From Antedon mediterranea (lineage: Eukaryota > Animalia > Echinodermata), in assembly GCF_964355755.1 (NCBI RefSeq), contig NC_092677.1, forward strand, positions 6,036,101 to 6,100,100: a stretch of 64,000 nucleotides of DNA. Reading direction: 5' to 3'. Below, piece by piece: positions 38,201 to 62,065 of the stretch. The number at the start of each line of letters is the position of its first letter. Within the stretch, counting starts at the first letter, position 1. The translations under genes and the position numbers were made by a program. Under the pieces are notes generated by a model. The model was not told the DNA's origin and ran no database searches. It worked only from the letters and a program-made list of their open reading frames with translations.

Positions 38201-39039
38201 CTAGAGGAAAAATAATTACATGAGTATGTCCCTTAGTAAAAGCATAGAACTACATTTATAGCTCCATTGTCAATTTTTTTAATTACCTGTAAATGACCGT
38301 ATAGTATTTGTTAGTTGTGTTTTTATAAATTATTCATTAGCCAGTATTCAATTCTATTCAATGGTGAATACCTCAATGCATGCAGTAGGAATGTTTTGTA
38401 TTCATTTGATTTGAGCATGGATTAAAGAATAGAAGGATATGCATCGACGTGAGATCAAGGGTTCCTTGACTCTCGCCGACAGACCGCGGACCGCCCACAA
38501 TGTTACAGTTTAATTAACCGCATGGTAACAACGAAACGGTCGCGTGCCTAATATATTGTTTACTGCACATGTGCAACGACATTTAACCTTGTTGGCTACT
38601 ACGCTTCTTTCGCGCGTTCTTTGGTGGCATGATGTTTGTAGATGGTCAACTATTGACTATGTTGGTTTCTGCCGCGATTGATCTACGCTAATGATTTTTT
38701 TATGATGATTAAAGTAGCATTTTATGACCTGTAGTAGCCCTACATCTGAGACAATAACTATTAGTTGTCTCATTTGTTGTAAAATTACAAAATCAGCAAG
38801 AATGCTAGCCTAGCTAGGCCCAGGCCTTGTACTAACTAGGCTAAACTGGGCTAGTAAACCCTATGATTTGCCGACATTGATACTGCCTAGGTAGGCCTAG
38901 GCTAATCTTAAATACTCACCGTTGTCTTACTTCTTGTGTGAATAATAATAGGTAGGCCTACTTCGTTTGTTCGTGATCAAGTTTGCCCTGCGTGTACTTT
39001 TCAAAACGACCGCTAGGTAACGAATCGCAACTATACATA

Positions 39040-39130: not shown

Positions 39131-39999
39131 CCAGGCACTACAGTTTAAATATAATCACATCGATAATTAAGGAGATTTATGAAGAAACCACTGCTTAGCC
39201 ATATATTAAAAAACACGATTGTTGTATGTCTGAACACCGGCCACGCTAACAACATACATGGTCAAATGCATAATTTAATATTCTATAGATTAACGCAATT
39301 TTTAATGACAGAAGATGGCAGGCAAATAATGATAATTCAAATATAAAAATGGCATATTTTATTAATATTACCAACTACCTAAAATTACCAGTCGTAAGAA
39401 AGTGAACTTTTCGTAGTCCGATTGTGATGAAACTAAAACAGAATTATTCAGCAATATATGTTTGTTATCAATTAATCATCGACGCAGACATGTCAATAGA
39501 ACATTCAGACTGCGCATACGATTTCTACATGGTTACGTTTTGGTCTAAAAAAATGTAACAGTTGATTCGCAGCGTTTTACAGAGGGCCGCGGTTAGAGAC
39601 ACGGAGTTCAATGAACGTGTTTGTTTGATTGGCAGCAGTGCTTTAGTATAGGCAAGCGCGTTGTAAAATCGTTTGATGTCACCGTCGATGCATATCCTTC
39701 TATTCTTTAATCCATGATTTGAGGCAATCATTTTATTTGACTGGCTGTTCTATTCAATTTCATAAACCTTTTTCTCACAGGGTGATGGAACAGACAGGGA
39801 TACCATTACCATGTCAGTATGGTCACTGTCACGCAATGCGAAATTATCGCCACTGTATTTGATCAAGATGAAGCAAATTTGATGGAGTCATTTGGAATCT
39901 TTCCACCAATAGAAAGTGGCCGATAAGTACAGTATGAAGCCTATGCATACATGGTAAGCCTAGGTTTTTCATTTCTAGTTGTTTTAAACTAAACAGAAA

Positions 40000-40049
<50 letters not shown>

Positions 40050-40530
40050 ATTAATTATACACTTGGGAGACAATTTGGCGTTTCAATCTGATACTTGGGA
40101 GACAAATACTTTTGGGAGACATTTTGATGTCTCCCTAATGTTAACATACCGTAAAAAACACCGTCTGCTGTTGTAACTTAAGATTTGAAGCAGTCTTTCT
40201 ATTCAAGTACATGTCTAAACACTTAGAATAGTTGATTTTAGTCGTAGGGGTGTTTATTAATAAAATTAAACCCTATAAGAATAAAGGGGGTTATATGTCG
40301 TGTTGTATGTATATGACATTTGGTAGACATTCAGTATTTCTTGAATTTTCAACAAAAAACGGATTATATGTTTAGCAAATTAGTTTAGTAATGTTTCCTT
40401 AATGATTCTAAATCTGGAAAATTTGCTATACCTGAAATTTAAAATAAACATTGTATTTATTGAAGTTTAATTAAAACAACACCATCATCAGGCGAATTAA
40501 AACTTTGAATTCAAAGATCCCACTCCTCCA

Positions 40531-40630
40531 CGCATGCGCAGTGTGCATGCATCGGGCGGCGCGCGAAGCGAGAAGAGGATCGGCGGGAAGCGAGCCGTGG
40601 GGTGGTAGTGAAAAACTTTTTTGATGCTTG
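40531..40630 (+). promoter_or_regulatory. Candidate internal promoter and non-coding first exon of the YR gene
   Basis: NRF1-like cgcatgcgca at 40531-40540, a GC-rich patch, donor TTG|GTATGC at 40631, then a CTAG-rich tract as seen near the host gene 5' ends. Confidence 0.45.
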
Positions 40631-41084
40631 GTATGCATAAATTAACTACTAATATTTACTAGGCTAGTTTGAATAAAATAAAACAACTAACAACCAATAA
40701 TATACAGGTCTATTAAGGCTAGTGAGGCTAGGCCCGGGCCAGCGAGAGGGTCCCCTACAAACAAGTACCCTTATTCTATACGATACGTCGTCTAGGCCTA
40801 GCTAGAGGGCTAGGTAGGCCTAGGCCTAGCCTATTATGCCAAGTAGGCCTAGGGGAAGGTAGGTAGGCTAAGCCTAGGCTACTAGATAGGTAGGCCTATA
40901 GGGCTACTACTAGCTAGCGGGAGGGGCCTTATTAGTTAGGCCTTGCCCTGGCCTAGTCTAGCCTAAAAAGAGAGTAGCCTAGCCTAAGGCCTAGCTAGGC
41001 CTAGCCCTACTACTACGTTCTAGGCTAGGCCTAGCCTAGCTAGGCCTAGGCTGTATAATAATAAGCTTAGAAGGTTAGTTAAGG

Positions 41085-41120
41085 CATAGAGATATTATAG
41101 TTCACTATAATATCTCTATG
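41085..41120. mobile_element. 36-bp micro-MITE (16-bp perfect TIRs, 4-nt spacer, 7-bp TSD; P-element-like ends)
   Basis: catagagatattatag-ttca-ctataatatctctatg flanked by gttaagg on both sides (41078-41084 and 41121-41127). Confidence 0.7.
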
Positions 41121-41945
41121 GTTAAGGCCTCCTATGCCTACTAAAGGTTATAATATTATAGGCCCTCTAGGCCTAAACCTACAAAAATGTTGACATTTAC
41201 AATGTCAAATTCAAAAGGATGCCTAGCTCTAGGCCTAGGCTAGGCCTAGGAAGAGTTATAAAATACAACTCACTCTACTAAGAGCTAGGCCTACCTAGGT
41301 AGACCCATAGCCTACTAAGCCTAGAGTAGGCCTACCCTATGCCTAGGCTACTTTCTACTTCTACAGGCCTAAAGTAGCCTAGTAGTAGGTACTAGTCTAG
41401 GTTAACTTTTAGAGGGTTAGCCTATTTTTTAGGTAGCTATGCTTAGTACTCTAGTAGAAGTGGTAGGATATGAGCCAGGTTTTTCTGTGACTTTTTTTTA
41501 TGATTCTCATTCATATGGGATTATGGGGGCTATGAAGGCAGTACATAGGCAAGTACAGCACTTTGAAGTGCTGTAGGTCTTGTTTGTCTGTTAAAGATAG
41601 TCTTTAGGTTTACCATCTCATAAGTCATACCCTCTAAAAACTGATGTGCTTAGTAACCTATACTAGTACTACACAGACAAGCATATTATAAACTGTATAA
41701 ACTAAGTAAGCCTAAATCTACTTTAACCTTACGTTAAAATGACAGTCAATTCTCAGCTGTATCACAAATTTCATTTTCAATTTCAAATAATTTTCCCTCA
41801 AAACAGAAGTAATGTTATTAGCAAGTGTACTCACTCAATACTTGTGGTATACATTGTGTACAGTAAATAAGTGCATTTTGATTTTATAGCTATTCAAATT
41901 CTAGTTTTTTTTTAAACTCTAGGAAGGTAATCAATCCTGAAACCG

Positions 41946-44900
41946 ATGGCACTCTCTTTTGAAGATGTGTTTAGAGATTTAAAGAAATCGTAAGTACACA
42001 TAATATGAATTATATACACATAGGGTTGATACGAGGCCTAATTCAATTATTTCCATTAAGCTTATTGATTACGTTTGACTATCATCAAATCGTTGACTTT
42101 AATTGAACTTGACTCAAATTAATAAAACCCATGTCTGTCTGTCTGTCCGGGTTTATTGAAAGACTAGGGGTTGCACGATCTTCAAACTAATAAGTAACCC
42201 TGAGGATATAGGTGAGTATGAATCTGATAAATGATGTTTTAAATTACATTTGAAACTTGCTCTGGGGTAGGTATACTTACTGGTAGATAAAAAACATTAT
42301 TACTGTATTATTATACATTCCAGATGTGGCCAATTAAAAAAGTAGAGTTAGTTAATGTTTAAAAGTGACATTCAAAATGGTAAGGTTGCAAATCTACAAA
42401 TGCAAATATTTTCTGTACAATTAAATTCGGCTGACCTATGAATATATTAATCTAGTAATTTAGTTGAATGAGAATTTTACAACCATTTTCTGACTTGTAT
42501 ATTCTTTTTATTTCAGAGGTAGAATAAGGGATGACGACTCATCAAGTGATGAAGAAACGGCTACTATCTTGACTACCACGGAAATGTAAATATTTACCAA
42601 ATTGAATTGCTCAGTTTGTAATTTTTAATTTGCATTTCATTGTATAGCCCATTTTTCTAAAAAGTTAAGCTCTTTTTCAATGTTGAATTATAAGAATTTT
42701 CTTGATTTTTGATTGTAAACACTAGGAAGACATGATGATCGTTGTTCTTCCAAACCGCTTTCAGAAAATGATTATCAAAGTTATTAGAAATACTTATATT
42801 TTTAAATAAGCAATAGAACGAAAAGTTATTGTAGTAGACTAAACACCTTTGTTAGCAATGTTGAGTACAAAATTGTGTAGTATTTTGATAAGTATTTTCT
42901 GTTAATTTCAGTGGTACAATAAGGAGTGGCAACTCATACAGTGAAGATAATTCAAACAAAACTACTTTCTTACCAACAAAAAAAATGTAAATATTTGCCA
43001 AATTAAATTGCTATTTAACATGATGCACTTGTAATTTTTAATCATGTATCTTGGAATAGTCTATTTTTCAAAAGGGACTAGGAATATTTATATTTTTTAA
43101 TAAGCAATAGAACGAAGAGTTATTGTAGTAGACTAAACACTTTTGTCAGCAATTGAAAATTGTCTAGTATTAATTATAAATTTTTTTGTTTCAGTGCTAC
43201 TGACTGTAACAAAACGTTGTTCACCAAAAAAACGTAAATATTTATTTAATTGAATGTCCATAATAAAACTGCTGATACTTTTGTTAATTGTAAACTCAGA
43301 TTGGTGGTACATAATGTTGGATGTCACTATCTCTAATAGTTTATGAGTATATTTCACTATATGTTATTTGTAAATGTTGCTACCATCCTACTGTATACTG
43401 TCATTGGGTTTAAAAATGTATATTTTTATATTATAAATTGCTAATTTTTTATTTAGATTGCGACCAGTAAAGACAGCATATGACATATTAGATGGTCTTA
43501 CATTCTGTGGTCTAAGAATTGTACGTATTTATTAACTCTTATCAAAATTAAATTATTACAGAAAACTACTGTATTTATATATATGCATAAGCAGAAATTC
43601 ATAAACGATGCCATTGTCATAAATGTCCTGATTTATTCATTTTTTTAGCCAAGATCAGATACTAAGAATAATGGTATGCAATCTGAAATTTGTATTTCAT
43701 TTTTCAATTTAGGTTCAGTTTTGTTTTCATGTCCAAAATGTTTTAAATGTTTTTTTTTTTGTGTTGATATGTTGATATTTAATAGTAACTTGAATAGTGT
43801 ATTTTTTCTTTATGATGTTAATTAAAAATAAGTATTGTTTGACTATTTTGACATCATTGGGAAATAAGATATAATTTTAAATATTGAATTTTGGTGTTTT
43901 CTTAGACATTGGTACAAACTATGGGGAAGAAGAAGAAGAAGGAACTGTAAGTATTATACCAGCATAGACTAAAATGCTTTGAAAGCTAACCTCGCCCAAA
44001 TTTTTATATGAAAAGTGTGTATCATTGTAACTGTGAAACATCCCTCAACGTCTTTTCTAATTAGTATAAAAATAGTATTTTTATGTCTTTTTTTTTTAAT
44101 AGGTATCTTATGTGGACACTTCCTATAGGCCAGATGATTCAATATCTGAAACTAGTGATGAAGTAGGTGTTATACTTTTAATGTTAATTTTGAAATCGTA
44201 TTTTGAAACTTTTAATGTTATAAAACAAATATTTACTGGGCTTTCATCGGGTAACGGTTACAAATATAGCCCTCGACTTCGTCTCAGGATATAGCATAGT
44301 CTCCAGATCACCTTGGTCTATATTTTTAACCATGCCCCTCAGTCCAGTAAATATTTGTATAACATACAACGTAATGTATTGCCTAGGCCAAAACTACTAC
44401 TTATCTATCTAGCGAACCATTTGTAAGAAGCGAAATACCCCCTATCCCAATATTCTCATATTATAACGCCTTATAAAATACTGTATTGTTATGAATATTA
44501 TACCAGCATAGACCTAGTGGGTTTAAAATGTTTCTAAAATGCTTTGAAAACTAGGCATGCTATGGCTGCTAAGCTAGTCCCTGCCTAAAAGAATAGTAAC
44601 TGACGGCAGTGCCAAATAATAATTTTAATACTACGTATGTTGGTTAAAACTTAGTATTATTAGGTATCCCAATGAAAAAATTCAGATTAATTTTTTTAAA
44701 TTTCCTTTAAGTTAACCATAAAGAACTTAATGTAATTAGCATTTTGCAATTTAAATGATTGAAATCCGATTACCCGTTCTAAAGTTATGGTTATTTAAAG
44801 TGGTAAAAAAATATACGATTTTTTGCCTAAAAATGGTGTTTTTTGCAGTTGAAATTGGAAGCATTTTTAAAAGGTTATAACTTTTACAATAATTAGTTAA

Positions 44901-47900
44901 AAGTTTTGAATTTTGTTAAACCTATAGATATCACAGAGTTGTACAACTCTATTTTTTTTGGAGCCTCAACGAAACCTATTTTTTAAATTATTGGTCCGCA
45001 AAGTGGTAGGAAAGCATTTAACGCCCATTTTTGCTGGAATTCCCTAAAAAATGAAAAAACTGCAATTTTTCAATGATCTGTAACTTTTGAACTACGGTAC
45101 TAATTCATTTAATTTTTTTTGTACTTGTTAGAATGTAGTGTATATTTCATTAATAAATATATTTTAGATGTGTATTTGAAAAAAAAAAATTTTTAATGGT
45201 AAAATTTAAAATTATAAAAAAAAAAAAATGAAAAAGTATGTTAAAAACGGTGTGTACTGTTTCCTTTCTTTTACACTAATTTTCGGTAAGTATAATTATT
45301 AGAATATTTTAATATACTTTATATTTATAATTTCAATCATAAATACTATTATATATAACTTTTGAATACGTAAAACAAGATTTTAGGCCCATATGATTAT
45401 GACACCAAATCTAAGCCGGGCTGCTAAGTAAGATATGCTCTTTTAAGGCAAACGCACAATATGGGTCAAAATAAACTCATTTAAACTAATCAATGTTAAG
45501 TAAAACAATTAATTGTTTACCTGAATAGTATATATAACATTATAAAAATTGTTTTCTTTTCGTATTATTACGTTATTAAATTGAAATACGGAGCTAAAGT
45601 TTAGGCCAAGTCACGGCTTACTCGCGATCAGTAGTCGCTCCCGTTAAAGTATTTCGGTCGCAGTTAATGACTTTCGGCCGCCGTATACAGAGTCAAATGT
45701 AACGTTGGTAAATTAGCTTAATAAATTTTCTCGGTACATTTTAACCTAACGCATTTGCATTGTATACTTGCATAATAAATCTTCCGCACATTACATCAAT
45801 TTTAAGTTGTTAAATTAATGTGTAAAACCAGATATTCTACGACGGAAAAGGACATGTCAATCTCCGACATCGCTGCTGTCACACATCTCGCGTCGAGCCG
45901 ATCGAACTCGAGCGAGGAAAACTAAACAACGTGTTCAAAATATGGAACGTACCATTCGCTGATAGGGTGCATTAATGTATTTAACAGAAAACGCCACAAC
46001 AAACACGCGCGTATTTTAGAGTACAATATTTTACTCACTACAATATTCACCGGATTATAATGGTTGGATCTTTAAAATTTTTGAACGGGATTTACGCCTC
46101 ATGCACCATTTTAAAATGTAGTTCGCACAATTACCATGCACAATACGTTTGTAAACTATGTTTTATCAATTTCAATGTAGATTTAGCTATAATTTAATAC
46201 CAAAATCCATAATATTTTTCCATAAACGGTGAATCAAAATTGGATTTTTGTCACAAAAATTGACTTTTCGTTACAAAAAACCTATTTATAGAAGACGATT
46301 TTCGTATCAAATTAAAGCTTATTTAAAGCCTGATAACATACAACAAAAATTAATCCGCTAGCTCCAATGGTAATCGTGCGATCGTGTTTTGAAAACTGAT
46401 GGGGATTTTCCGATGAGGTTTTCAACGCGCGGAAATCGGCTCGACGGGATTTTAGAACCGTTTTAAAATCGCATTTTCTCGGCAACTAATTCATTAATTT
46501 TAATTATAAACACACTTATACATAGATTAAAACAAGTACTTTCAAACAATATAAATTTTGTAAGTATTAATTAAGATTGAATACGATTTATTTAACATCA
46601 AAGTCATACTACTTTTTCGAATTTCGTCAATATTTCAAAAGTGATATAGGCTATGGGGCATGGCCTTCTATCGTTTCATTTCGTGATCCCCTATCGGGGG
46701 GGAGAATAAAATTGCTATGACAATTATAACAAAAATATAGATAATCTTAAACTGGCCGGTCCCGGTTGTAAATTTTACGCGTCAACGAAATATGTTTGTT
46801 TTTATATGTATTTTATTGTGATATAGAAGATTTTTGTAGGTCAGTACAGGTCGCACAATTGACCAATCAAAAAATTTGTCTTTTAACTCATGAAGCTGTG
46901 CAACAGTAACTGTCCAATCAGATTCCCTTACACAGCGGGATACGGCTACTAGACGATCGTAAACAAACATGTGTTGTTCTTCTGGAGCGCGGAGCAGGAA
47001 GATGTCATCTTCTGATGATCAAAAACGTTGTTATTGACACAATACATCTAATTCTGGGACAATATTAACATTCACAGAAACCAAATGGAAAACTTTTTTA
47101 ATGTGTACAAAAAGTTGGTGCAATCTAAGCGGCAATCAAAAGGAGTTTTGTAGCCGCAAATCCTTTTGAAAATATTGAGAGGAGCTTACCAATACTTGTT
47201 ACCAATTCCTGGCGACGCTGGATGTCATAAAAAGATGCTATCAATATTTCACTGATTGTAGCAAACAAAGGCGAGCAGTAAAATATGAAATAGAGGATGT
47301 TAATTCATCCAACAATGAAGAAGGTAAATTCTATTTGTTTTAATGATAGGTCTAGTCTAGCCTAGGCTAGGCCCCTACTAGGCCTAGTAATTAGTTCATA
47401 TCATACTGCCTTGCTAAAAAAAGCCTAGCTAGGTAGGTTGGCGGTGGGTAGTCTACAAAGTTTATTTTTTTAATATGTATTAAGCCTACGTAGAGTAGGC
47501 TAGGCCTAGTATATAATTTTTTTTAAATATCTGGGCCAACAAAAAATGAACCCATAATTACAATATGAATTAGGCCTAGCTAGGGTGGCCCCAGTATTAT
47601 TGTGTAGTGGACCTAGTTTGATGGTACCTCCATCTTGGGAAAAAACATTTGCATTTTATTATTCAATGTGGTAATGCATGCAAACCTTGGCAAGTAGCCT
47701 CAGGCAAGGACAGAATGGACCAACCTGATGCTTTATGTTGTTATTTGAGACATATTATTTGAATTCTTGTACTGCAATATTAAATAGTGTATAGATGATA
47801 CTGAACTGATTATATTATTATATTTATTACACAAACATTTAGAATCATAAATATTAATTAGTATTCTTTTTTTTTACAGAAGAATTTCAAGGATTAGAGT

Positions 47901-50900
47901 CAACAGAAGAGTTACTAAACGAAGGAGAGTTCTGCGATCACATGTAGCAATTACACAAACTGCATAAAAAATGCTGAACGAAGTCGAAGAGTAGCCATCG
48001 GCTCACAAACAATTAAAATACCAAAAGCCGAACAGCAAATTCCAGAACAGTTGAAAACATTTTTATCTGCTAATCAAGTTCTTCTTTCAAATATGAAGCA
48101 TGTGTGAAGCAGATCACCTCAAGGGAATAAATGTATTCATAACATCATCATTATTATGCCATTCTATTTCAGAATCAAATGGAAAAGTTTTAATCAAGAA
48201 GAGGCAGACACCAGAATGTTTCTGTATGCGAAGTATGCTGCACACCATGGTGGTAAAGATATTGTTACAATCAGCCCTGACACTGATGATGTTTTTATTA
48301 TTGGATTGGCATTTTGCAAAAGTCTGCATGGCTCTCACCTATATTTCAATACTGGAAAAGATGCTAATCTCCGAACAATTCATCTGCAGGCTATTCAGGA
48401 ACATATTGGAAATGATGTTTCAAATGCATTAATTAGACTACATTGCTTCACAGGATGCGATTCAGTCAGCGCTTTTTTTGGGAACGGTAAAGTGAAGGCA
48501 ATGAAACTCGTAATGGAAAACTCTAATTTATGCATTCTTTTCATTGGGCAATTCTACCAGCAAACTTTCAGATGAATTACTTTGTGATCTAGAAACATTT
48601 GTATGTAGGCTGTACAGTATTGTCACAAGAACCAATCTGTCAATGAAGTAAGGTATGCAATGTTCTCAATGAATGTAAGAGCTGAAAATATGATGCCACA
48701 CAATAAAGATACTGTATATAAACATATTCAGCATGCCAATTCTCAAGCTTCAATTCACAAAGCTAGTTTTATTCAACAACAAAATGCTCCATCTCCTGTT
48801 GGAAATGGGTGGAAGATGGCCGATAATAAACTCGTAATTGACTGGATGGAGAAGCAACCTGCTCTACACAGCATTCTCGAATTGTCATCCTGGTCATGTA
48901 AAAAGTCAAAATGCAATGAAAGGGTTGCAAATGAAAAATGCTGTGTATCCTTAGGATTCTCTTGTACAGAATTATGCTCGTGCAAAAACTGTAACAATCT
49001 TCTTCATACATCAGATGTTTGAAATTGATGGAGATGATAGCGATGATGAGGAAGAGTTTGAGCAGGAAGAACTTTTTAGTGTAGTTTAAGTGTAATTTAT
49101 GGTTTACAAATGTTCATTTTACTTGGTCTAAATGATTTTAATGTAATAGGCCTATAATATGTAAATTTATATTAAACTATTTTGTAACGTAACGGATGAA
49201 CCATGAGAAAGTATAAAATAAAGAACCCATGAGATGATAAGCGATATTAAGACACAGGAGTATTATAAGAAACTTTCTACTTTGATGCTTACAATACATT
49301 AATATGCCTCTAAAATGTAAATTTATATTAAACTATTTTGTAACTTAACTATTTTGTAACGTAACGGATGAACCATGAGAAAGTATAAAATAAAGAACCC
49401 ATGAGATGATAAGTGATATTAAGACACAGGAGTATTAATAAGAAACTTTCTACTTTGATGCTTACAATACATTAATATGCCTATAAAATGTAAATTTATA
49501 TTAAACTATTTTGTAACTTAACTATTTTGTAACGTAACGGATGAACCATGAGAAAGTATAAAATAAAGAACCCATGAGATGATAAGTGATATTAAGACAC
49601 AGGAGTATTAATAAGAAACTTTCTACTTTGATGCTTACAATACATTAATATGCCTATAAAATGTAAATTTATATTAAACTATTTTGTAACTTAACTATTT
49701 TGTAACGTAACGGATGAACCATGAGAAAGTATAAAATAAAGAACCCATGAGATGATAAGCAATATTAAGGAACAGGAGTATTATAAGAAACTTTGCTGTA
49801 ATAATTTCATTTATTTGTTACTAATTGATTACAATTCTATGTTATACATCTACAATGAAAACAATAATGCAACATTTGATTTATTACTAATTGATTATAA
49901 TTCTATGTTATGCATCCAATGAAAACAAAAAGTTGCAATTATATAGGAGAGATAATATTAATAAATATTTTGTGACAGCATAGTCATGAATTATAAAGAT
50001 TGAAAATGCATCTTCTTTTCAGTGTGCTTAAATAAATATTAATTAAGGTTTACTAACAGATACATTTCTTACAAGGACTACAATATTAATCTCAAAATTA
50101 TGATAAAAATATTGCATGTTAAATGTCAAAGAAAGATACAGTATAAGTTATTCCAATGGAACGATTGTATTTTATCCAGTACTAACACTAACAGAAAATA
50201 TACAAAATAGAGGGCGCTATTTCTATGTATTTCTTTATGTTGAGAAATTCGATTTTTTTACACCTAAAATTACACTTATTGCGTAACTTTTGAAAGCGGG
50301 ACCGGCTGAATTTGTGTTAATCTAATTATTAACTATAAACTGTGTGAATATCTTCCTCCCCCCCGTTAGGAGATCACGAAATTCGTTTTCTAGGCCTCTT
50401 TTTGGCTCATGCCCCATAGCCTAATACCCCTCTGTGCGCTTTCATTGGGATACCTAGTATTATGGTTTTGCTACAATTATTTGAGTGTATGTTAAAAAAA
50501 CTTATGGACGAAAAACGCTCCATTACAAAAATACAAAAGGCAAAATGTTTGGAATCATGAAATTGGAAAAATTTAGTACCATGAAAATAAAATATTTTAC
50601 AGTATATCATTGTAACTGTATGGAACATCCCTCAATGTATTTTCCAATTAGTATACAAATAGTATTTTTATATTTTTCCTTTTGAATAGGCATCTGATGT
50701 GGACACTTCCTATAGGCCAGACGATTCAATATCTGAAACTCGTGATGAAGTAAGTGTTTTACTTTTTATGTTTATTTTGAAATTGTATTTTGAAACTTTT
50801 AATTTTATAAAACAAATATTTACTGGGCTTCAATATAGCCCTCGACTTCGTTTCAGGATATAGCATAGTCTGCAGATCACCTTGGTCTATATTTTTAACC

Positions 50901-53900
50901 ATGCCCCTCAGTCCAGTAAATATTTGTATAACATACAACGTAATGTATTGCCTAGGCCAAAACTACTACTTATCTATCTAGCGAACCATTTGTAAGAAGC
51001 GAAATACCCCCTATCCCAATATGCTCATATTATAACGCCTTATAAAATACTGTATTGTTATGAATATTATACCAGCATGGGTTTAAAATGTTGCTAAAAT
51101 GCTTTGAAAACTAGGCATGCTATGGCTGCTAAGCTAGTCCCTGCCTAAAAGAATAGTAACTGACGGCAGTGCCAAATAATAATTTTAATACTAAGTGTGT
51201 TGGTTAAAACTTAGTATTATGGTTTTGCTACAATTATTTGAGTGTATGTTAAAAAAACTTATGGACGAAAAACGCTCCATTACAAAAATAAAAAGGCAAA
51301 ATGTTGAAAATAAAATATTTTACAGTATATCATTGTAACTGTATGGAACATCCCTCAATGTATTTTCCAATTAGTATACAAATAGTATTTTTATTTTTTT
51401 CCTTTTGAATAGGCATCTGATGTGGACACTTCCTATAGGCCAGACGATTCAATATCTGAAACTAGTGATGAAGTAAGTGTTTTACTTTTTATGTTTCTTT
51501 TGAAATTGTATTTTGAAACTTTTAATTTTATAAAACAAATATTTACTGGGCTTTCATCGGGTAACGGTTACAAATATACCGTATGTGTTAAACCAAGGGC
51601 TCATAAATTTACCTACTTGTGTTAAACCAAACTCTGGCAGACTGAGAGATTGGGATGTTCCATTCATCGCAAATCAATACATTTGTATAATCGTATATTA
51701 AATCTATCAAAATAGTATTTTTTAAAGAAAATCGGCCTGTCTTCAACATTATGATGCTGTACTCTAGCTGTTCAACCAGTTTTCAGCTATTAAAAACAAT
51801 TATCGTAGGAGGAGATAGGAAAATGCGAAGCCTCTTCGCATTTTTGTGGCGGGTATTTTTCAAGATGGACATCCATTAGACAGTGTATACCACGATCGGA
51901 AAACACCCTTATTTGGGGCAAATCGTTGAACCTAAATTTGTTTTAATCGTCAATAACTAATTATCTAACTTAATTTAATTAGTAAACAGGGTTACATCAG
52001 GTGGTGAAAATCAGTACCGAAAGTACGAACCAACTTTATATACCATCGAGTAAAAATTCTAGAAGTAAGGCGCGATTTACCGAATTTTGCCCTTACGTAA
52101 ATTTATATATAGATTATAGAAATAATTATCACTAAATCAAACAATATTTGTCCAAAAAAGCCACTCTACATTCTTAGACAAAGTTATCATGTTTTTTTCC
52201 ATAGGAAACAGAAATTCCAGAGGTTGAAGAAGTAGTAGTGAGTAATTTAATTCCATATTATTTAGCAGTAGCAACCTTTTCTCACAAGACATTAATATCA
52301 TACCCATACCTTTTTTTTTCTGTATGAAGGGAATTGTCAATATTTGTATATGAAAGCTTATGCAAAACCAGTAAACATATACCCTTTACTTTACTGCTTG
52401 TGAAAATCGTGAAATTCAAGTAAAAGTTTTTTGCCATTAAAATCACAAATGTATAAATTTTAGTGTGTAACCTTATTTTAGGTCGATGTAAATAATTGTC
52501 ACTAAAACATTGATATTTATGCTTTAGGCCTATATTATACAACGTAATGTATTGCCTAGGCCCAAACTACTACTTCTTTATCTAGCTCGATCGAAGCTGC
52601 TTGTTAATGTTTAAACTGATCTATAACTATATTATTAACTTAATTTATTTGAAATAAATATATTTATATATTACTATCTAAAAGTTTAGGCTAAAATTAT
52701 TTTTTTCTTTATCATAGGATCCTGAAATAAAAAAAAAAAAAAAAAATCAAAAAAATTAAGGAAACCAGCACGTTTGTGTCCATTCTGTAAAAAGTATTAT
52801 CGGGAAAAACTAACAAGACACATTAAAACAGTACACAATGACAACCAAAGAGTAAAAGATGCTCTTAAATTTCCAAAGCGAGAAATGCAAAAACAGTTCG
52901 ACCTAATGAGAAAAGAGGGTATATATATTGTAAATAATGGTGAAATGAAGAAGAATGATCCAAAGTACGAACAAGAAAGAAGAACCACAAGTAAGAAGCC
53001 ACCTGTAATGTGTGGGCTTTGTAAGGGATTTTACAACCGGGCATCGTTTAGCCGGCACAAGGTTAAGTGTCGGGGTAAAACTAGTGCTAACTGCGACCAC
53101 ATTCCGATGAGTGGAATTAGTTGTGATCTGTCTGCCTTTAATGTTGAAATTCTCAATCGTTTTAGGACCGATGAAGTTGGTGAGATTTGCAGAACTGATT
53201 TAACATTAATAAATATCGGGAAAAAATTTTGGGACAAAAAGAAAAACAAAAAAGACAAGAAGCTAGAGGGTCGGAAATCTGTAATGTCTGACATGAGGAG
53301 GTTGGCGACATTATATAACTTCTTTAAAAAACATCTAGTTAATAAAACCCAATGTGATCTAAAAGGTGACATTAGTGACATGTTTAAAAGAAAGCATTTT
53401 ACCTCCCTAGTTGAGGCTATCGATGAGTACACTACCGACGAGGTAACTACATCTCTAAAAGCTGGTCTGAAGTCTGGTTTATACTACTTGATTAGAAGAG
53501 CATGCTTGATTATCAAAGGCACTCATCTTGAACAAGAAAGAGATACTGATGCTTCAGAAGTTGACAAATTCCTAGATGTCCTTAAGTTGAATGAAGATTT
53601 TGTTTTTGGAGATGCTTCCTACCAACAGAATCAGAACAGACAAAAGAATTTGCGAAAACCTACAGTGTTACCCTTAGAAAATGATGTGCAAAAACTCAGA
53701 GAGTACACTTTAAATCAAATTACAACCATGATAAATGACCCATATATGATATGGGATTCACATAATTTCAGAAAATTACGAGATTTAACCGTTTCAAGAT
53801 TGACACTTTACAATGCTCGACGTGGTGGGGAGCCATGCCGTTTAGTGATAGAGGAGTGGCAAGAAGCCAAAAACAACACATGGGTTGATAAATATCATGC

Positions 53901-56900
53901 TGATGGAATTTCTGATCCACTCGAAAAGTCTTTGATCAACAAACTAAAAATCACCTTTCAAACAGGTAAAGGAAACAACCATTTGGTGCCGGTTCTGTTC
54001 CCGCAAGACTGTGTTGATGCTATGGATGTACTGAGTAAACCTGAAGCAAGATCTTCTGCAGGTGTTGCTGAAGATAACAAATATGTCTTTGCGTGTGTCC
54101 AAAGATCACAAAATCATGTGACGGGCTGGCACGCCATTAATAGCATTTGTGTTGAAGCAGAAATCAGTTGTCTGGAAAAGTTAACAGCAACAAAAAACCG
54201 CCATAGAATCAGTACTCTGTATGCTTCCATGGAGCTGCCAGAAGCGGAAAGGTCACTGTTCTATAAACACATGGGGCATTCCTCAACTATTAATCAGAAT
54301 GTTTACCAGGCTCCACCAGCTTTAATGGAAATAATCAAAATCGGAAGAGGCTGGAACACATTGACAAAGGTTAGTCATTTTATTTTTTAATCATTTCATT
54401 CAAAATAATTAAAAAATAAAGTTAATGAGCAAATTATGACCATTCAAATTCAAATCAACAAATGCTGCTCTGTATTGTAATCCGAATTTTGATTATCATA
54501 CTTATCTAAAATACAATTATCTACTTGTTGAATATCATTAAATGTTTATATTTTACAGGTGCCAATAATTCACAAGAGTCCCAGAAAACTTGTATAGAAG
54601 GTAATTATGTAGGCCTAATTATAACAGACAATTAACTTGTTCTTTTTCTAATAACATTGTTCATAAAACTTATATTATATCGGTCAGACTTTAATACATT
54701 TTTTAGAATGTGTTTTTTAAAGGAAGAATAGGAGTGATTTTGAGACCTAAAAAGTCAGATTTAGCGTGAAATGTATTTTTCCGTGTGGTCAGTACTGAAG
54801 AATCCAATGTATAAACAAATCACTACATACATAGAAGTCTTGGTCCACGAATATATGAATAACAATTCTCTATGACTTCTTTGATATTTTACAGATGACA
54901 GGTTGATGGATTTGGAGGAGGAAGAGGAGATAATTGAGAAAAGTAAAAGAGGAAAAAGAAGGAAAGGTATGCAGAAATATGTGCTGTTTGTGTTTTAAAT
55001 GTGGCTAAATATTTTTTAATTTGGCAAAAAGAAACCAAAACTTTAGTTAAATCTTTGTCTAGAGTATGAGCGACTCCACTACTACAATAGAGTACATAGA
55101 AACGTTGCACTCCCTCCACCCCCATAAAGGGTCTGGTTCAAAAGTTTTATTACCAACCCAGATCTTTGCTCTTGGTACCCCAGAATCAATTTTTTGAAGG
55201 CAATTCAGATATCACTGAACAGTTTTGTTCACCATCTAATATGACTTAGGAATATATGAATAAATATAAAACAATTCTCTATGACTTCTTTGATATTTCA
55301 CAGATGACAGGTTGATGGATTCGGAAGAGGAAGAGGAGATAATTGAGAAAAGAAGAAAAAGAAAGAAAGGTATGCAGAAATATATGCTGTTTGTGTTTTA
55401 AATGTGGCTAAATATTTTTCAATTTGGCAAAAAGAAACCAAACCTTTAGTTAAATCTTTGTCTAGAGTATGAGCGACTCCACTACTACAATAGAGTACAT
55501 AGAAACGTTGCACTCCCTCCACCCCCATAAAGGGTCTGGTTCAAAAGTTTTATTACCAACCCAGATCTTTGCTCTTGGTACCCAAGAATCAATTTTTTGA
55601 AGGCAATTCAGATATCACTGAACAGTTTTGTTCACCATCTAATATGACTTAGGAATATATGAATAAATATAAAACAATTCTCTATGACTTCTTTGATATT
55701 TCACAGATGACAGGTTGATGGATTCGGAAGAGGAAGAGGAGATAATTGAGAAAAGAAGAAAAAGTTTGAAAGGTACATGCGGGAATATGGGCTGTTTGTG
55801 TTTTAAATGTGGCTAAATATTTTTTTAATTTGGCAAAAAGAAATCAAACCTTTAGTTAATTTTTTGTCTAGAGTATGAGCGACTCCACTACTACAATAAA
55901 GTACATATAAACGTCGGACCCCGTCAATCCAGATCTTTGTTCTTGGTTTCTATTAATCGATTTTTAGGGAAATGCAAATATGAAAAAGTAACCCTTAGCT
56001 TTATAAATGTTTTTTGCTCGAAATGTTCTGAATTGTCAGTTAAGAAAATATGATGTATTGTTTAAATTGTTAACCTCTCTTAATTGCACTAAAAAAATGT
56101 AATTAGCTAACATATTTTTCATTGCAAGTGAGCAAAATGATGAAAAGAAAATGCTTTTATTTACAGGGAGAATGTACACAAAATGGAAAACAAAAGATGA
56201 AAGAAACTTCAATGACATAATAATTGGTACAGCAAATAAGACTATACCTTGTGAGTAATAATTTTTCTGCATTATTTAGTACAGTAAATCCTATGTAACA
56301 GTAGTATTTAAGTGTTATTGATAATTAAATCCCTTGTGTACAGTTAATACTTTTATTCTGTTTTTATAGATATCATTTAAGGCCAAAAAATGTATATTTA
56401 TCGTTTCTGACTGCTTCCTTTTAGATGTCACTTTTAAATATGGAGAGGAAAAGCATTTTTGTATCGATGGCGATTTAGAGCCAATTTCTAACAACTAGAT
56501 GGTACGCTTGCTTCGCTCGCGTACCATCTAGCATCATGTCTATGCTGCCAATCAGCTTGATCGGCGCTTTCTCGTATGTCCACGACAGTGGCTGTATGAA
56601 CTGGTACACCAGGTGTAACTCCCCTACTTGTCTTCGAAATATGTACTAGGTTCAGCAGTGTGTGTACACTGGACCTACGCTTTATAGTCCTTATGCGAGA
56701 AGAAAAAAAAATGCAAGAAAAAAAAAACAGGGCATACTCTTTTCAAAAAGTTTGGATGTTTTTTTTTCATGTAATAACACATAATAAACCATCAATTAAT
56801 AATTAGAGATATTATTATTGTTTTTTTTTTTTGTATTGTAGCTAAGAATGAAGCTTTGACATTTTTAAACAAATATATGCTGCATGAGAGCTATCCATGG

Positions 56901-56984
56901 AAGACCGTAAGATCAAAAGTTATGAATGAACGAGTAAAGAGGCAAAGACAAATTAAAGAAAGGATGGAGATAATGGAGATGTGA
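41946..56984 (+). CDS. Multi-exon tyrosine recombinase gene: acidic N-terminus, C2H2 and C2HC zinc fingers, YR domain, acidic/basic repeats, Myb/SANT-like C-terminus; two apparent 1-nt frameshifts
   Basis: Exons 41946-41989, 42517-42585, 42912-42986, 43195-43233, 43457-43520, 43649-43673, 43906-43946, 44103-44162, 50690-50749, 51413-51472, 52718-54369, 54559-54600, 54895-54966, 55304-55369, 55707-55772, 56167-56250, 56842-56984. YR motifs LYNARRGGE (R), GKGN (K), TKNRHR (R), MGH (H), VYQ (Y). Frameshifts needed in the A18 run 52729-52746 and near 54349. Confidence 0.8.
47000..49090 (+). pseudogene. Degraded Academ protein: XPG/FEN1-like nuclease domain and C-terminal Cys-rich zinc finger
   Basis: EEADTRMF, SPDTDDVF, HCFTGCDSVSAFFGNGK (H3TH-like), GNGW, and CKKSKC...CC...CTELCSCKNCNN; broken by frameshifts and stops; no transposase core seen. 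Confidence 0.8.
49150..49795. repeat. 173-bp tandem repeat, about 3.7 copies, inside the Academ element
   Basis: atgtaaatttatattaaact recurs at 49159, 49315, 49488 and 49661. Confidence 0.9.
50457..51578 (+). repeat. ~720-bp tandem exon-intron unit (copies at ~44020-44660 continuing at 50457, ~50605-51330 and ~51330-51578)
   Basis: Near-identical 60-nt exon (xSxVDTSYRPDDSISETxDE) and intron flanks repeated three times. Confidence 0.9.
51578..52113 (-). mobile_element. 5' fragment of the Helitron family found at 59260-60576
   Basis: Near-identical to 60036-60576, including the A|TCTATATA start. Confidence 0.8.
54850..55960 (+). repeat. ~405-bp tandem exon-intron unit, 3 copies
   Basis: Exons begin at 54895, 55304 and 55707 (DDRLMDxEEEEEIIEK...), with near-identical introns. 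Confidence 0.92.
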
Positions 56985-57094
56985 GATGTCATAAAAATCA
57001 ATGTATTAACAATTTGCAAATTGTTAATATATTGATGTAGCAGTCCAAATACATTGCATGCTAATATCAGCTCTATTAACAATTTTCTTAAAGA

Positions 57095-58030
57095 TGTATT
57101 GTTGATAATAGTAGGCAATTTATTGAGACTGCAATGTGTTAACAATTTACCTAATGGCACAAGATTTGATTCTGATTCAATTATATAATTGCTGTATTAC
57201 AATTTCCTGTAATATTGATAATAGTATGCAATTTATTGAGACTGCAATGTGTTAACAATTTGCCTAATGGCACAAAATTTGATTCTGATTAAATTATATA
57301 ATTGCTGTATTACAATTTCCTATAATATTGATAATAGTATGCAATTTATTGAGACTGCAATGTGTTAACAATTTGCCTAATGGCACAAAATTTGATTCTG
57401 ATTAAATTATATAATTGCTGTATTACAATTTCCTATAATATTGATAATAGTATGCAATTTATTGAGACTGCAATGTGTTAACAATTTGCCTAATGGCACA
57501 AAATTTGATTCTGATTAAATTATATAATTGCTGTATTACAATTTCCTGTAATATTGATAATAGTAGGCAATTTATTGAGACTGCAATGTGTTAACAATTT
57601 GCCTAATGGCACAAGATTTGATTCTGATTAAATTATATAATTGCTGTATTACAATTTCCTATAATATTGATAATAGTATGCAATTTATTGAGACTGCAAT
57701 GTGTTAACAATTTGCCTAATGGCACAAGATTTGATTCTGATTCAATTATATAATTGCGGTATTGCAATTTCCTGTAATATTGATAGTAGTATGCAATTCA
57801 TTGAGACTGCAATGTGTTAACAATTTACCTAATCGCACAAGATTTTATTCTGATTAAATTATATAATTGCGGTATTACAATTTCCTGTAATATTGATAAT
57901 AGTATGCAATTTATTAAGACTGCAATGTGTTAACAATTTGCCTAATGGCACAAGATTTGATTCTGATTCAATTATATAATTGCTGTATTACAATTTTCTG
58001 TAATATTGATAATAATAATATGCAATTTAT
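57095..58030. repeat. 113-bp satellite, about 8 copies, downstream of the YR stop codon
   Basis: gcaatttattgagactgcaatg (with minor variants) recurs at 57115, 57228, 57341, 57454, 57567, 57680, 57793 and 57906. Confidence 0.95.
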
Positions 58031-59125
58031 TTTTATCTGTACATAATTGTATATGTAATGCTTGCATAAATGATTTTTATTTATTTATTTTTTTGACGCA
58101 GCTTTTATGAAATTGATTGCCGCCGATGTACATCATATATGTCAATAAAATATTATTATTATAGCATGCAATTTATTGAGACTTGCTACACTATAATTAC
58201 TGTGTACTCTATGTATACATTATTTTATTTAATGTGAAAACAGTATCAATTACTTTGTTTGTACAATCTTCACCTTACAAGCTAAAATTGTTTCAAAGTT
58301 TAGATATTCTGTTAAATTGAATAGGTTTGGCATTTGGACTCTTAATAAATCTATCTTAAAGAAATTGCGAATTTGTTGAACTTCTTTATTTTGAGTAAGT
58401 TTGTTGCTTGATCTAATTCATTCGGGCTGGTTTAACTTTCAGCTAGGTTACAAAGCGAAATCAAATGTTCCTTTTATTCAAAAAAATAGAATTTTTATTT
58501 TGAATACTGTATTATAACACATTTATATTTTTAGTAGAATTGTTGTCTGAAGATGATCTTTACAAAGCATTTTTAACAATTTGTACCATATTTTAACACC
58601 TTGATATTAATCGTGTTGTAGATTTTCATTTCGAGGGTTAATTATTGTTAGCATTTCATGGCCCCACCCTCTTAAAAACCCTTCTGAACAATTAACAAAA
58701 AACATTTTTTTATTCATCAATTTAACATTGGTATGTTTTTTTCTATCAATAGTAATAATTGGAATGGTTTTAATGAGCTTTGTACTGGTATTGTTGACTT
58801 TGCACTATTGTTGCACTGTTTAATCTGTAAATAAGACATTTTTATACTGTAATATGTTATGTACACTGTCAAGTCTCCCAAATGTACATTTTAGAGTTTG
58901 AAAAACAGTTGGGAGACAAAAATAACAACTTAAAACATATATATCTTACAGTTTAATTGTTATTATAATTTTTTTTGTTTTTAAATATGTAGTAACATGC
59001 CTTTAATGAAATAAAATGAAAGGGTGTATGTAAAATATATGTCAAAGTATAATAATCAGCCATTTTGTCATTGTCTCCCAAATATACAAAAAAATAGCAT
59101 GTCTCCCAAAGTGTTAATTTAGTGG

Positions 59126-59158
<33 letters not shown>

Positions 59159-59259
59159 CATACTGTAAATTATAGAAACAGTGCTCATATTCGGAACATG
59201 ATCTCAATCGCGTCGAGCATAGCTCATTGGCGAAAGTTATTATACTATAATTTACAGTA

Positions 59260-60576
59260 CTAGATGGTACGCTCGCTTCGCTCGCGTACCATCTAGGTCG
59301 TTCCCACAGATGGTTCTCGAATACACAGTAATTTCAGCGTAACAAAACTGGCGATTTCAAATGTACGTACCGCAGGACTATAGGCCTATACATTGTCGTT
59401 TACAGTTCTACAAATAAATAGACACGATGATTTATGTAGTCAACTAAAATTAGCACCCTGGGAATTACTTCCGAAGGAGAAACTTATCACAAAATGAGTC
59501 CAAGTTTTTGATTTGGACTCATTTAAAGAAACCCAATTTGTGTTTTGTATGTAACATTAGGGTTGAGGGATGGGAAAGCGGATAGGTACAAAGAGGAACA
59601 ATTTTTAAATATATTCTTTATCCACTCAGTAACGAAATATTTTTTTTATAGGCCTATAAATAATATACCTCTAAATACAGTAAAACATTTGCGATTTAAT
59701 ACTTTTTTTATTTTATTTATTTATTTATTTCTTTTAAATATTCATTGTACACTAATTTTCCCCGTGTATGGCAGGAGATTCCTAATTATATTAGAGAACA
59801 TTCTTTATTTAGTTTAGTTAAAACTGTCACTGTCATAATCGATTGAAATATTAAAGTACCATGTAACGATACACCACTACGACGTTTATATTTGGTAATT
59901 AATAATTAATACAAACGTTGAGAAAGAACTGTCAGTATAAAGTTTATTTGTATATAATAATGTGTTTATATATCTAACAGTAGAGCCTATCCACAATCTC
60001 GCAAGTTTATTCTCAAAGGGCCCATATATTTACCTACCATATGTGTTAAACCAAGGGCTCATAAATTTACCTACAGTACTTGTGTTAAACCAAACTCTGG
60101 CAGACTGAGAGATTGGGATGTTCCATTCATCGCAAATCAATAGATTTGTATAATCGTATATTAAATCTATCAAAATAGTATTTTTTAAAGAAAATCGGCC
60201 TGTCTTCAACATTATGATGGTGTACTCTAGCTGTTCAACCGGTTTTCAGCTATTAAAAACAATTATCGTAGGAGGAGATAGGAAAATGCGAAGCCTCCTC
60301 ACATTTTTGTGGCGGGTATTTTTCAAGACGGACATCCATTATACAGTGTATACCACGGTCGGAAAACACCCCTATTTGGGGCAAATCTTGGAACCTAAAT
60401 TCGTTTTAACCGTCAATAACTTATTATCTAACTTAATTTAATTAGTAAACAGGGTTACATCAGGTGGTTAAAATCAGTACCGAAAGTACGAACCAACTTT
60501 ATATACCATCGAGTAAAAATTATAGAAGTAAGGCGCGATTTACCGAATTTTGCCCTTACGTAAATTTATATATAGA
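59260..60576 (-). mobile_element. Non-autonomous Helitron, about 1.3 kb
   Basis: Minus strand begins A|TCTATATA and ends with hairpin ctagatggtacgc...gcgtaccatCTAG|T; inserted in AT with no TSD. A second copy of the 3' hairpin is at 56495-56531. Confidence 0.75.
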
Positions 60577-60906
60577 TGATTTATATATAATTTACACAGT
60601 GCTACGCAACATCATTGATATATATATATACAGTATTACGTCCCGAGTCCAGATAAGAATCCACTCAAACATGCCATATCAAGACTGTGTATACAGGGCC
60701 AGGATCACTTGTGTGAAATGCATAACAGGACAGCGGACATTGTCTACCGCCGGCCCCGATGTGAAAGTTCACTAACAACAATTATGACAAAAATTCATAA
60801 AGAAGTACGGTAACTAAATTTAATATATATACGGTACTGATGATGAGCTCGTAACAGACACACACATCGGCTATCTGATCCGTCAATAATGATACTTAAA
60901 ATACAG

Positions 60907-61986: not shown

Positions 61987-62065
61987 TAAAATACAGCCAT
62001 CTATTAAAAAACCAACAAACATTTAAATATATATATATAAACGGTGAATACAACTGCACGTCAAC

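Follow-up and report, generated by a model that had tools for sequence, protein, structure and literature searches.

Does a tyrosine recombinase (YR) reading frame lying between two long TA microsatellites in the crinoid Antedon mediterranea belong to a mobile element and, if so, what kind of element is it and how would it move? We examined this in a 64,000-nucleotide stretch of contig NC_092677.1 (positions 6,036,101 to 6,100,100), referred to as the window and numbered from its first letter. The reading that we consider likely is that the locus holds a decayed but full-length member of a young Crypton-type YR DNA transposon family with multiple copies, predicted to move via (TA)n recombination, and that its Crypton subtype is probably CryptonV.

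Boundaries and terminal motifs

The candidate unit measures 19,080 bp (40046-59125) and lies between pure (TA)22 and (TA)14 tracts, which places its ends against TA repeats as the initial annotation of this DNA had claimed. The next-longest TA run within the 64-kb window is 22 bp, at 14114.

40002-40045, no strand: pure (AT)22 tract, presumed left portion of the target microsatellite
40046-40137, plus strand: left end, a ~55-bp imperfect inverted repeat with TTGGGAGACA at inward positions 18, 50 and 67
58872-59125, minus strand: right end, with TTGGGAGACA at inward positions 17 and 45 and a further pair at 208 (inverted) and 245
59126-59153, no strand: pure (TA)14 tract, presumed right portion of the target microsatellite

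At the left end, an inverted TTGGGAGACA copy at inward position 83 pairs with the copy at 67, forming a palindrome (40112-40137) with 10-bp arms and a 6-bp spacer. Alignment of the first 70 bp with the reverse complement of the last 70 bp scored 48, against a maximum of 34 among 4,931 random window controls, in support of the earlier description of the ends as imperfect inverted repeats; the outermost ~6 bp are unlike (GTGTAT vs CCACTA). When up to one mismatch is permitted, TTGGGAGACA occurs 10 times in the window compared with 2.66 expected, a count reached in 0 of 100 shuffles. The motif had been described as confined to the two terminal clusters, and this holds for all six exact copies, which lie within 300 bp of the unit ends; it holds for nine of the ten matches when a mismatch is permitted, the tenth lying outside the unit at 25820. 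On the motif shuffles and the inverted-end alignment score, we reject the idea that microsatellites flank the unit by chance.

Nested insertions and size

Several insertions and internal repeats contribute to the length of the unit.

41078-41127, no strand: hairpin insertion, a 36-bp perfect hairpin (41085-41120) between 7-bp duplicates GTTAAGG
44661-50456, plus strand: nested 5.8-kb DNA transposon in intron 8, with terminal inverted repeats TAGGTATCCCAATGAAA and a 7-bp duplication GTATTAT
51577-52127, no strand: 551-bp host repeat in intron 10, sharing 95% identity with 60035-60592, which lies beyond the element
57095-58031, no strand: 113-bp tandem array of 8.3 copies in the 3' region

The nested transposon, perhaps Academ-like, contains a 173-bp tandem array and a broken ORF (48108-49022) that had no match in Pfam, and its empty site is visible in a duplicated intron at 51195-51240. 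The hairpin insertion is missing from other copies, as a contig joint skips 43 bp in three public runs (X1, X2 and X5). Nested insertions amount to 6.4 kb, leaving a net unit of 12.6-12.7 kb, in agreement with the ~12-13 kb first estimated. The original description of the element as giant does not stand as worded, the total length coming in part from this nested DNA and from internal tandem duplications. No cargo genes were found among the unit's ORFs and gene model, the only other ORF remains being those of the nested transposon, and Rfam gave no match across 38000-64000.

A single predicted gene encodes the recombinase

One gene with 18 coding exons is predicted in the unit, confirming the complex gene of the initial annotation while revising its count of ~17 exons.

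40500-40640, plus strand: candidate promoter, or else a first exon without coding sequence, rich in GC and CpG; a TAGGCC-rich stretch resembling an intron comes next
41946-44162, plus strand: predicted exons 1-8, with an ATG at 41946 and a low-complexity, acidic N-terminus
50690-52237, plus strand: predicted exons 9-11 of the gene model
52718-54369, plus strand: exon 12, with two zinc fingers and the tyrosine recombinase
54559-56985, plus strand: predicted exons 13-18, of which the first three are acidic/basic and repeated in tandem (403-bp units), ahead of a C-terminal domain; stop at 56983-56985

All introns are GT-AG, and their phases keep exons 1-11 and 13-18 open. The predicted protein comprises acidic repeats, zinc fingers, a YR fold and a conserved tail. 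Exons 8-10 are tandem duplicates of one another, with identities of 56/60 and 59/60, and AATAAA occurs in the 3' region at 58144, 58344 and 59010. The promoter proposed earlier keeps its candidate status, with a GC content of 0.56 and 12 CpG in 40500-40620. The C-terminal domain encoded by exons 13-18 is kept in relatives, and an HTH/Myb-like identity for it is a lead only.

The YR reading frame is at 52726-54390. The AlphaFold model has a pLDDT of 93.8, and its top 15 PDB ranks in a structure search are all tyrosine recombinases (best XerA, E 2.4e-3, prob 1.00), with no PDB match at E<=0.001. Catalytic-type residues, assigned by motif order and not by structural superposition, are R349/R350, K399, R476/H477, H502 and Y511 (counted from 52774). 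R, K, R, H and Y are retained in 84-87 of 88 aligned relatives, and the first His position of HxxR is a Lys in the Antedon YR. Both hallmarks of the tyrosine recombinase superfamily, the integrase catalytic fold and the catalytic residues, are present, and the identification of the ORF as a YR stands. By sequence, the YR frame matched nothing in Pfam or PDB beyond weak zinc-finger hits, and PF00589 matched 3 of 16 relatives weakly, all below the curated cut-off. DUF3504 (PF12012) and GCR1_C were found in 0 of 16 family members at E<=0.5, with no DUF3504 match for the window frame; DUF3435 matched neither the YR frame nor the 16 family members, and no viral protein was a structural match to the YR at E<=0.001.

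Exon 12 as assembled contains two -1 frameshifts, one within the run of A at 52729-52746 and one close to 54340. The copy is therefore non-autonomous as assembled, contrary to its earlier designation as autonomous-type. It is conceivable, though in our judgment unlikely, that both frameshifts are homopolymer assembly errors in an intact, autonomous copy of the same element, given that each break amounts to one lost base in a short run (18 A in one case, GGAA in the other) and that all other exon frames are open. Against this, private substitutions and insertions also distinguish this copy from the others, and the public gene model of this locus (P0001) skips the first break and takes the shifted frame after the second.

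Copy number and insertion site

Contigs of public runs, compared with the window outside the YR exon, bear on whether this decayed copy is one of many. Contig depth rises about 11-20-fold at the left end: from 5-8.7 on left-flank contigs to 55-116 inside the unit in run X2, and from 120-171 to 1,520-2,690 in run X1. Run X5, from another sample, goes from 2.7 to 7-18.5; its contigs continue unspliced through introns, and the run reads as DNA, not RNA as first guessed. The two ends have equal depth in X2 (left 97.8, right 94.8), and the right-end depth in X5 is 14.6. The left-end rise and the equal end depths make a young element present in multiple copies the likely reading; the family is also young because end contigs differ little from the window (over 926 letters, 1 differs and a further 28 positions are gaps; over 918, 3 differ). 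Depth in X2 drops to 55 at 43511-43900, so copies differ internally. Contig depth alone indicates about 10-20 near-identical copies with both ends present, although depth is not copy number and reads the same for dispersed and clustered copies.

Relative to the other copies, this one has a unique left flank, frameshifts, and private substitutions and insertions; its right flank is a very high-copy repeat. Right-end contigs (X2, X5) stop 35 and 38 letters past 59117, inside the TA tract, and left-end contigs (X2, X6) stop 37 letters before 40059. In organism B, contigs of X6 match the left 3.8 kb closely, and neither X6 nor X7 has a long contig on 58200-59117 at >=90%, a missing cover that proves nothing. 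The empty allele that the initial annotation had proposed as a check was not seen in run contigs at either flank; one 476-nt X2 contig departs from the window at 39990 with 349 unmatched letters and did not reappear at the right flank. These contigs show no second insertion site, and dispersal and TA targeting are read from one locus plus contig ends. These data support a bounded, probably multi-copy YR element with ends abutting TA tracts.

Amplification by segmental or tandem duplication with microsatellite breaks, or a host-retained YR gene family, could stand in place of active transposition, as contig depth is blind to the arrangement of copies and the many introns are compatible with domestication, a point discussed for Glomhoppers in a passage of PMC13465315. 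We find this quite improbable: depth steps up at the left TA junction, motif arrays face inward at both ends, and the unique left flank, frameshifts and private insertions are unlike a conserved host gene.

Relatives in other animals

The relatives of this YR make up a large animal protein family (2,055 clusters at E<=1e-30), and its members are often SET-fused. Seven Hydra loci are present among the 15 listed members of one 90% cluster and the YR tree contains several lineages per echinoderm species, suggesting that the relatives behave like transposons. The Antedon protein groups with Hydra and Hydractinia proteins (support 98/95; 39-43% identity). SET-bearing members are dispersed over the tree (10 changes vs a shuffled mean of 9.5), a pattern that may reflect truncated gene models, and tblastn with five SET-bearing relatives as queries found no SET domain in the element. 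DUF3435 clusters appeared as weak look-alikes of one relative (Atlas score 0.88, a lead only).

Metagenomes provided 185 stretches with relatives, of which 80, in 52 groups, were kept; these are short contigs, most unable to hold both ends. Microsatellites of at least 16 bp occur in 19 of the 80 loci, two of them TA. No inverted-repeat pair beside microsatellites surrounds the YR in any of 55 loci of at least 4.5 kb, most being too short for both ends. In these short contigs, breakpoints between near-copies are internal insertions with no clear termini, and TTGGGAGACA does not cluster. The TA-plus-end-motif pattern had 0 matches in prokaryotic genomes and viral contigs, and the viral contigs contained no relative of the YR.

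Comparison with known elements

CryptonV was reportedly described by Kapitonov and Jurka in 2012, in Repbase Reports 12:2034. It appears by name in passages of PMC4455052 and PMC5753468, and a sentence in PMC8869645 states that some CryptonV families insert specifically in microsatellites. The Antedon element is alike in being a YR-encoding DNA transposon in a microsatellite, a trait present at one locus and accompanied by high-depth end contigs that stop in TA tracts, and its YR has close relatives in cnidarians. The Antedon copy is 19 kb (net ~12.7 kb) with 18 predicted exons and imperfect inverted ends, in a comparison where CryptonV is known by description only. The initial suggestion of a possible CryptonV relative is plausible, given the PMC8869645 sentence and the Hydra relatives in the same family.

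CryptonA, I, F and S also have a single YR gene as sole mobility protein and a proposed circular intermediate, according to parts of Kojima and Jurka 2011 (PMC3212892), which describe them as without TIRs and the animal ones as without terminal repeats or C-terminal domain. The ORF list and gene model likewise give a YR as the sole mobility gene, without reverse transcriptase. In contrast to these Cryptons, the Antedon element has zinc fingers, a conserved C-terminal tail and, in place of the classical 4-6-bp end direct repeats without TIRs, ~55-bp imperfect inverted ends; the TA tracts could represent Crypton-style end direct repeats. The DUF3504 YR of CryptonA is found in 0 of 16 family members.

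The captain YR of Starships sits at the 5' end. Partial accounts portray Starships (fungal, with a DUF3435 captain YR) as large YR-driven eukaryotic elements like the present one, whereas the Antedon element has an animal host, its YR in the 3' half, no DUF3435 match and no cargo genes. Starship-like cargo carriage is rejected on the last two grounds, as is a DIRS/Ngaro-type retroelement, there being no RT/RNase H ORF of at least 100 aa in 40046-59125. Telomere-repeat-targeting YRs of endogenous nimaviruses, as described in part of PMC10871703, share an animal-genome YR, a C2H2 zinc finger and a simple-repeat target with the Antedon element, which has no viral genes; this comparison is by description, not sequence.

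Proposed mechanism

For Cryptons, a section of PMC3212892 presents a model with a circular intermediate and a 6-8-bp spacer. In the Antedon element, the protein of an intact copy may bind the TTGGGAGACA repeats as subterminal arm-type sites, and its YR would cut inside the TA tracts beside each end. Because (TA)n would supply an identical, self-complementary 6-8-bp overlap in any register, the need of a YR for matching crossover sequences would be satisfied. Excision would yield a circle containing a short TA spacer; this circle could then insert into any TA tract, in both orientations, without leaving a target duplication that could be measured. For the frameshifted copy, the enzyme would have to be supplied in trans.

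DDE elements typically have inverted ends and repeated motifs in subterminal position, and the ends might instead be those of a cut-and-paste (DDE) TIR element with a TA target, in which the YR gene is captured cargo and for which the transposase is encoded elsewhere. The outermost bases differ between the two ends, however, and such a difference fits YR arm sites better than DDE termini. Sesarmid nimaviruses, which have a 46-bp inverted repeat, provide a parallel: part of PMC10871703 reports that their insertion into (AT/TA)n is DDE-driven. Nevertheless, the sole other ORF remains in the unit belong to a nested element with its own ends, the YR catalytic residues are kept and the relatives are multi-locus in other animals, and we give a DDE origin little credence.

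Implications for Cryptons and for annotation

According to a passage of the Kojima 2026 review (PMC13565253), the Crypton transposition mechanism has not been demonstrated experimentally. With a young, sharply bounded family and mapped end motifs, circle formation and TA targeting become directly testable. CryptonV is seldom named in the literature searched, despite the size of the protein family; Repbase probably includes this class of element already, so the surprise is limited. A bolder and rather doubtful reading is that the element is a recently active member of a large, animal-wide YR transposon lineage distinct from described CryptonV, combining Tn916/lambda-style subterminal arm sites with (TA)n as a universal crossover, moving 13-19 kb and tolerating an 18-exon gene and, in many relatives, a SET methyltransferase fusion. 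If so, nature would offer, in an intact copy, an integrase able to place large payloads in animal microsatellites. Relatives are annotated as uncharacterised or as SET/KMT5A-like host genes in several animals, and the finding therefore bears on their annotation.

Boundaries and size of the element

The element is likely a real, microsatellite-bounded tyrosine recombinase (YR) transposon, multi-copy and young, of which the present copy is damaged. Pure TA tracts adjoin the unit on both sides, as the initial annotation had described, and its ends are indeed imperfect inverted repeats: aligning the first 70 bp to the reverse-complemented last 70 bp gives a score of 48, against a maximum of 34 among random controls (n = 4,931). 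The outermost six bases of the two ends are not alike. TTGGGAGACA has 10 matches in the window at ≤1 mismatch, against 2.66 expected, and 0 of 100 shuffles reached 10. The six exact copies all lie ≤300 bp from the two element ends, in line with the terminal clusters of the initial annotation; of the 10 matches in total, nine do so and one does not. The motif pair at 40112-40137 (10-bp arms, 6-bp spacer) resembles in layout the YR core site of 11-13-bp arms and 6-8-bp spacer described in PMC3212892, and is a candidate core site.

Features bounding, interrupting or encoded by the element (window coordinates)
40002-40045: pure TA tract, left
59126-59153: pure TA tract, right
Left end, inward positions 18, 50 and 67: TTGGGAGACA; inverted copy at 83
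Right end, inward positions 17, 45 and 245: TTGGGAGACA; inverted copy at 208
41078-41127: perfect hairpin of 36 bp, flanked by 7-bp duplicates and present at very high copy number in the runs
44661-50456: nested TIR transposon, 5.8 kb, with 7-bp duplication; the duplicated intron shows the empty site
52718-54369: exon 12, two -1 frameshifts as assembled (A-run 52729-52746, and near 54340)

Subtracting the nested transposon, two small hairpins and a host repeat of 551 bp from the 19,080-bp unit leaves 12.6-12.7 kb, within the 12-13 kb estimated previously. Together with one 7-bp duplicate, the 36-bp hairpin at 41078-41127 is missing from other copies, for which the sequencing runs X1, X2 and X5 show a 43-bp skip; it is a minimal mobile hairpin. 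The nested transposon, which we take to be Academ-like, likewise has a 7-bp duplication. Its terminal repeats are 17 bp long, a second inverted pair lies further inside (46678-46713 / 50347-50382), and its ORF, nuclease-like and ending in a tail rich in Cys, is broken. A 37-bp hairpin repeat lies both in the element (56494-56531) and in the right flank (59259-59296), at a depth of hundreds of thousands.

The predicted gene and its recombinase

Splice sites read by hand yield a gene model of 18 coding exons, close to the roughly 17 first proposed, running from an ATG at 41946 to a stop at 56983-56985 and totalling 2,696 nt, with GT-AG boundaries at every intron. Small exon-intron units duplicated in tandem (exons 8-10 and 14-16) account for much of this number. 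Exons 1-11 are open (190 aa), as are exons 13-18, entered in phase 1, and once both exon 12 frameshifts are allowed for, the phases of neighbouring exons agree on each side. Near 54340 the alternative frame yields a G-x-x-L-x-x-I-D motif present in 83 of 114 relatives, and the C-terminus of a holothurian relative is matched by exon 17 (E 1e-4) and by exon 18 (E 5e-6). With these two -1 frameshifts, the copy as assembled does not bear out the designation "autonomous-type".

The frame at 52774-54369 is 100% identical to an NCBI protein of the crinoid Antedon mediterranea (P0001, 703 aa), from which the window very likely comes. Pfam and PDB sequence searches with this frame did not recognise a YR. 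The AlphaFold model built from an 88-sequence alignment (pLDDT 93.8) has a YR fold: tyrosine recombinases occupy every one of the top 15 ranks in a Foldseek search against the PDB (XerA, XerH, integron and Tn1549 integrases, XerD), the best at E 2.4e-3 and probability 1.00, with nothing at E ≤ 0.001. Matches in a viral structure library are integrases and VLF-1, all at E ≥ 0.01. The catalytic-type residues R349/R350, K399, R476/H477, H502 and Y511 are conserved in 84-87 of the 88 sequences; two zinc fingers are likewise conserved wherever the alignment covers them. Cargo genes were not found in the element, and we think it improbable that a DDE enzyme drives its movement with the YR itself as cargo.

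Copy number and mobility

Public contig sets were placed on both ends (39500-43900 and 58200-59700). In X2, left-flank contigs have depths of 5 and 8.69, compared with 54.7-116.3 on contigs from 40059 on; the corresponding values are 119.8-171.2 and 1,520.9-2,692.2 in X1 (same sample), 2.7 and 7-18.5 in X5 (different sample), and 27.7 and 49-110 in X6 (different organism code). These depths suggest 11-20 copies relative to the flank, taken as a ratio, contig depth itself being no copy number. Between the end contigs and the window there is 1 letter of difference in 926 (plus 28 gap positions) in one case and 3 in 918 in the other, so that the family is likely young.

A single X2 contig spans 58200-59117; its depth of 94.8 resembles the 97.8 recorded at the left end, and it continues only 35 letters beyond. 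An X5 contig stops similarly, after 38 letters. On the left, end contigs of X2 and X6 extend 37 letters beyond 40059. Each overhang equals the leftover terminal bases plus 24-30 letters, lengths (rather than compared letters) that fit all copies ending in TA. We regard amplification without transposition as an improbable account of these copies. Speaking against mobility, no second insertion site was seen among the contigs placed on the two ends. Nor did contigs on either end show the empty allele anticipated by the initial annotation, perhaps because a patchwork of repeats at very high copy number makes up the right flank (59154-59700) directly after the TA tract, with very high-copy sequence from about 59160 onward. 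A 476-nt X2 contig matches 39864-39990 with 4 differences, followed by 349 unmatched letters, and is not among the contigs listed on the right flank.

The left flank at 39731-39990 is unique. Part of it resembles an exon, with an acceptor near 39780 and a donor near 39955, and the element may therefore sit inside an intron. X6 covers the left part closely (40059-43900, 3.8 kb); neither X6 nor X7, both from organism B, has a long contig at ≥90% on the right end (58200-59117), and organism B may carry a related family whose 3' end differs.

Relatives and comparison with known systems

Relatives comprise 164 near-length and 32 longer proteins, and relative clusters number 9,563 at E ≤ 1e-3, 5,665 at E ≤ 1e-10 and 2,055 at E ≤ 1e-30. 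Named relatives come from echinoderms, cnidarians, molluscs and one tunicate, with distant matches in one beetle and one frog. A 34-protein tree groups the Antedon protein with sea-cucumber, urchin, Hydra and Hydractinia proteins (support 98/95). One Hydra cluster has 7 loci among the 15 members listed, several with isoforms, on contigs of four lengths; multi-locus spliced genes are therefore not unique to Antedon. Among 16 family members scanned, none matches DUF3504 or DUF3435 at E ≤ 0.5, and three match PF00589 weakly. A SET domain occurs in 11 of the 32 longer relatives; none was found in the Antedon element. The database proteins P0121, P0123, P0126, P0139, P0140 and P0144, from echinoderms, cnidarians and one mollusc, carry annotations as uncharacterised or SET-domain proteins but belong to the element's family, in which they are SET-zinc finger-YR fusions.

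By analogy, the element may act like a Crypton. It probably belongs to CryptonV: some CryptonV families insert specifically in microsatellites, according to PMC8869645, which cites a report on cnidarians. Domain content sets it apart from CryptonA, Starship and DIRS. Classical Cryptons lack TIRs, whereas the Antedon element has inverted ends, and Cryptons described in the literature examined are smaller and less intron-rich. That literature, with most subscription journals and Repbase Reports outside it, contained no TIR-bearing, intron-rich or SET-fused microsatellite Crypton and no description of the Antedon element itself.

On the analogy of YR biochemistry and the Crypton model, the YR would bind the subterminal motifs, strand exchange would occur inside the TA tracts, and the element would be released as a circle and then inserted into another TA tract. 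(TA)n could offer matching overlaps in every register and both orientations, which would explain the target choice and also why no defined duplication is present. The transposition model is that of PMC3212892, and PMC13565253 calls it still unproven.

Other features of the window

An inverted repeat pair, 38434-38475 / 39683-39703, lies about 1.2 kb apart. The sequence that continues the left arm is matched, as its reverse complement, by loose ends at 39683, which suggests an inversion or a further small TIR element. Visual inspection of 62050-64000 shows a broken ORF1 and remnants resembling a reverse transcriptase, presumably LINE-like. Host exons, all on the minus strand, were observed as follows, with identities that we assume from their appearance.

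Host exons (window coordinates)
4385-4687, minus: Hsp70-family gene
13814-14086, minus: ubiquitin-like domain
27421-27786, minus: DOMON domain
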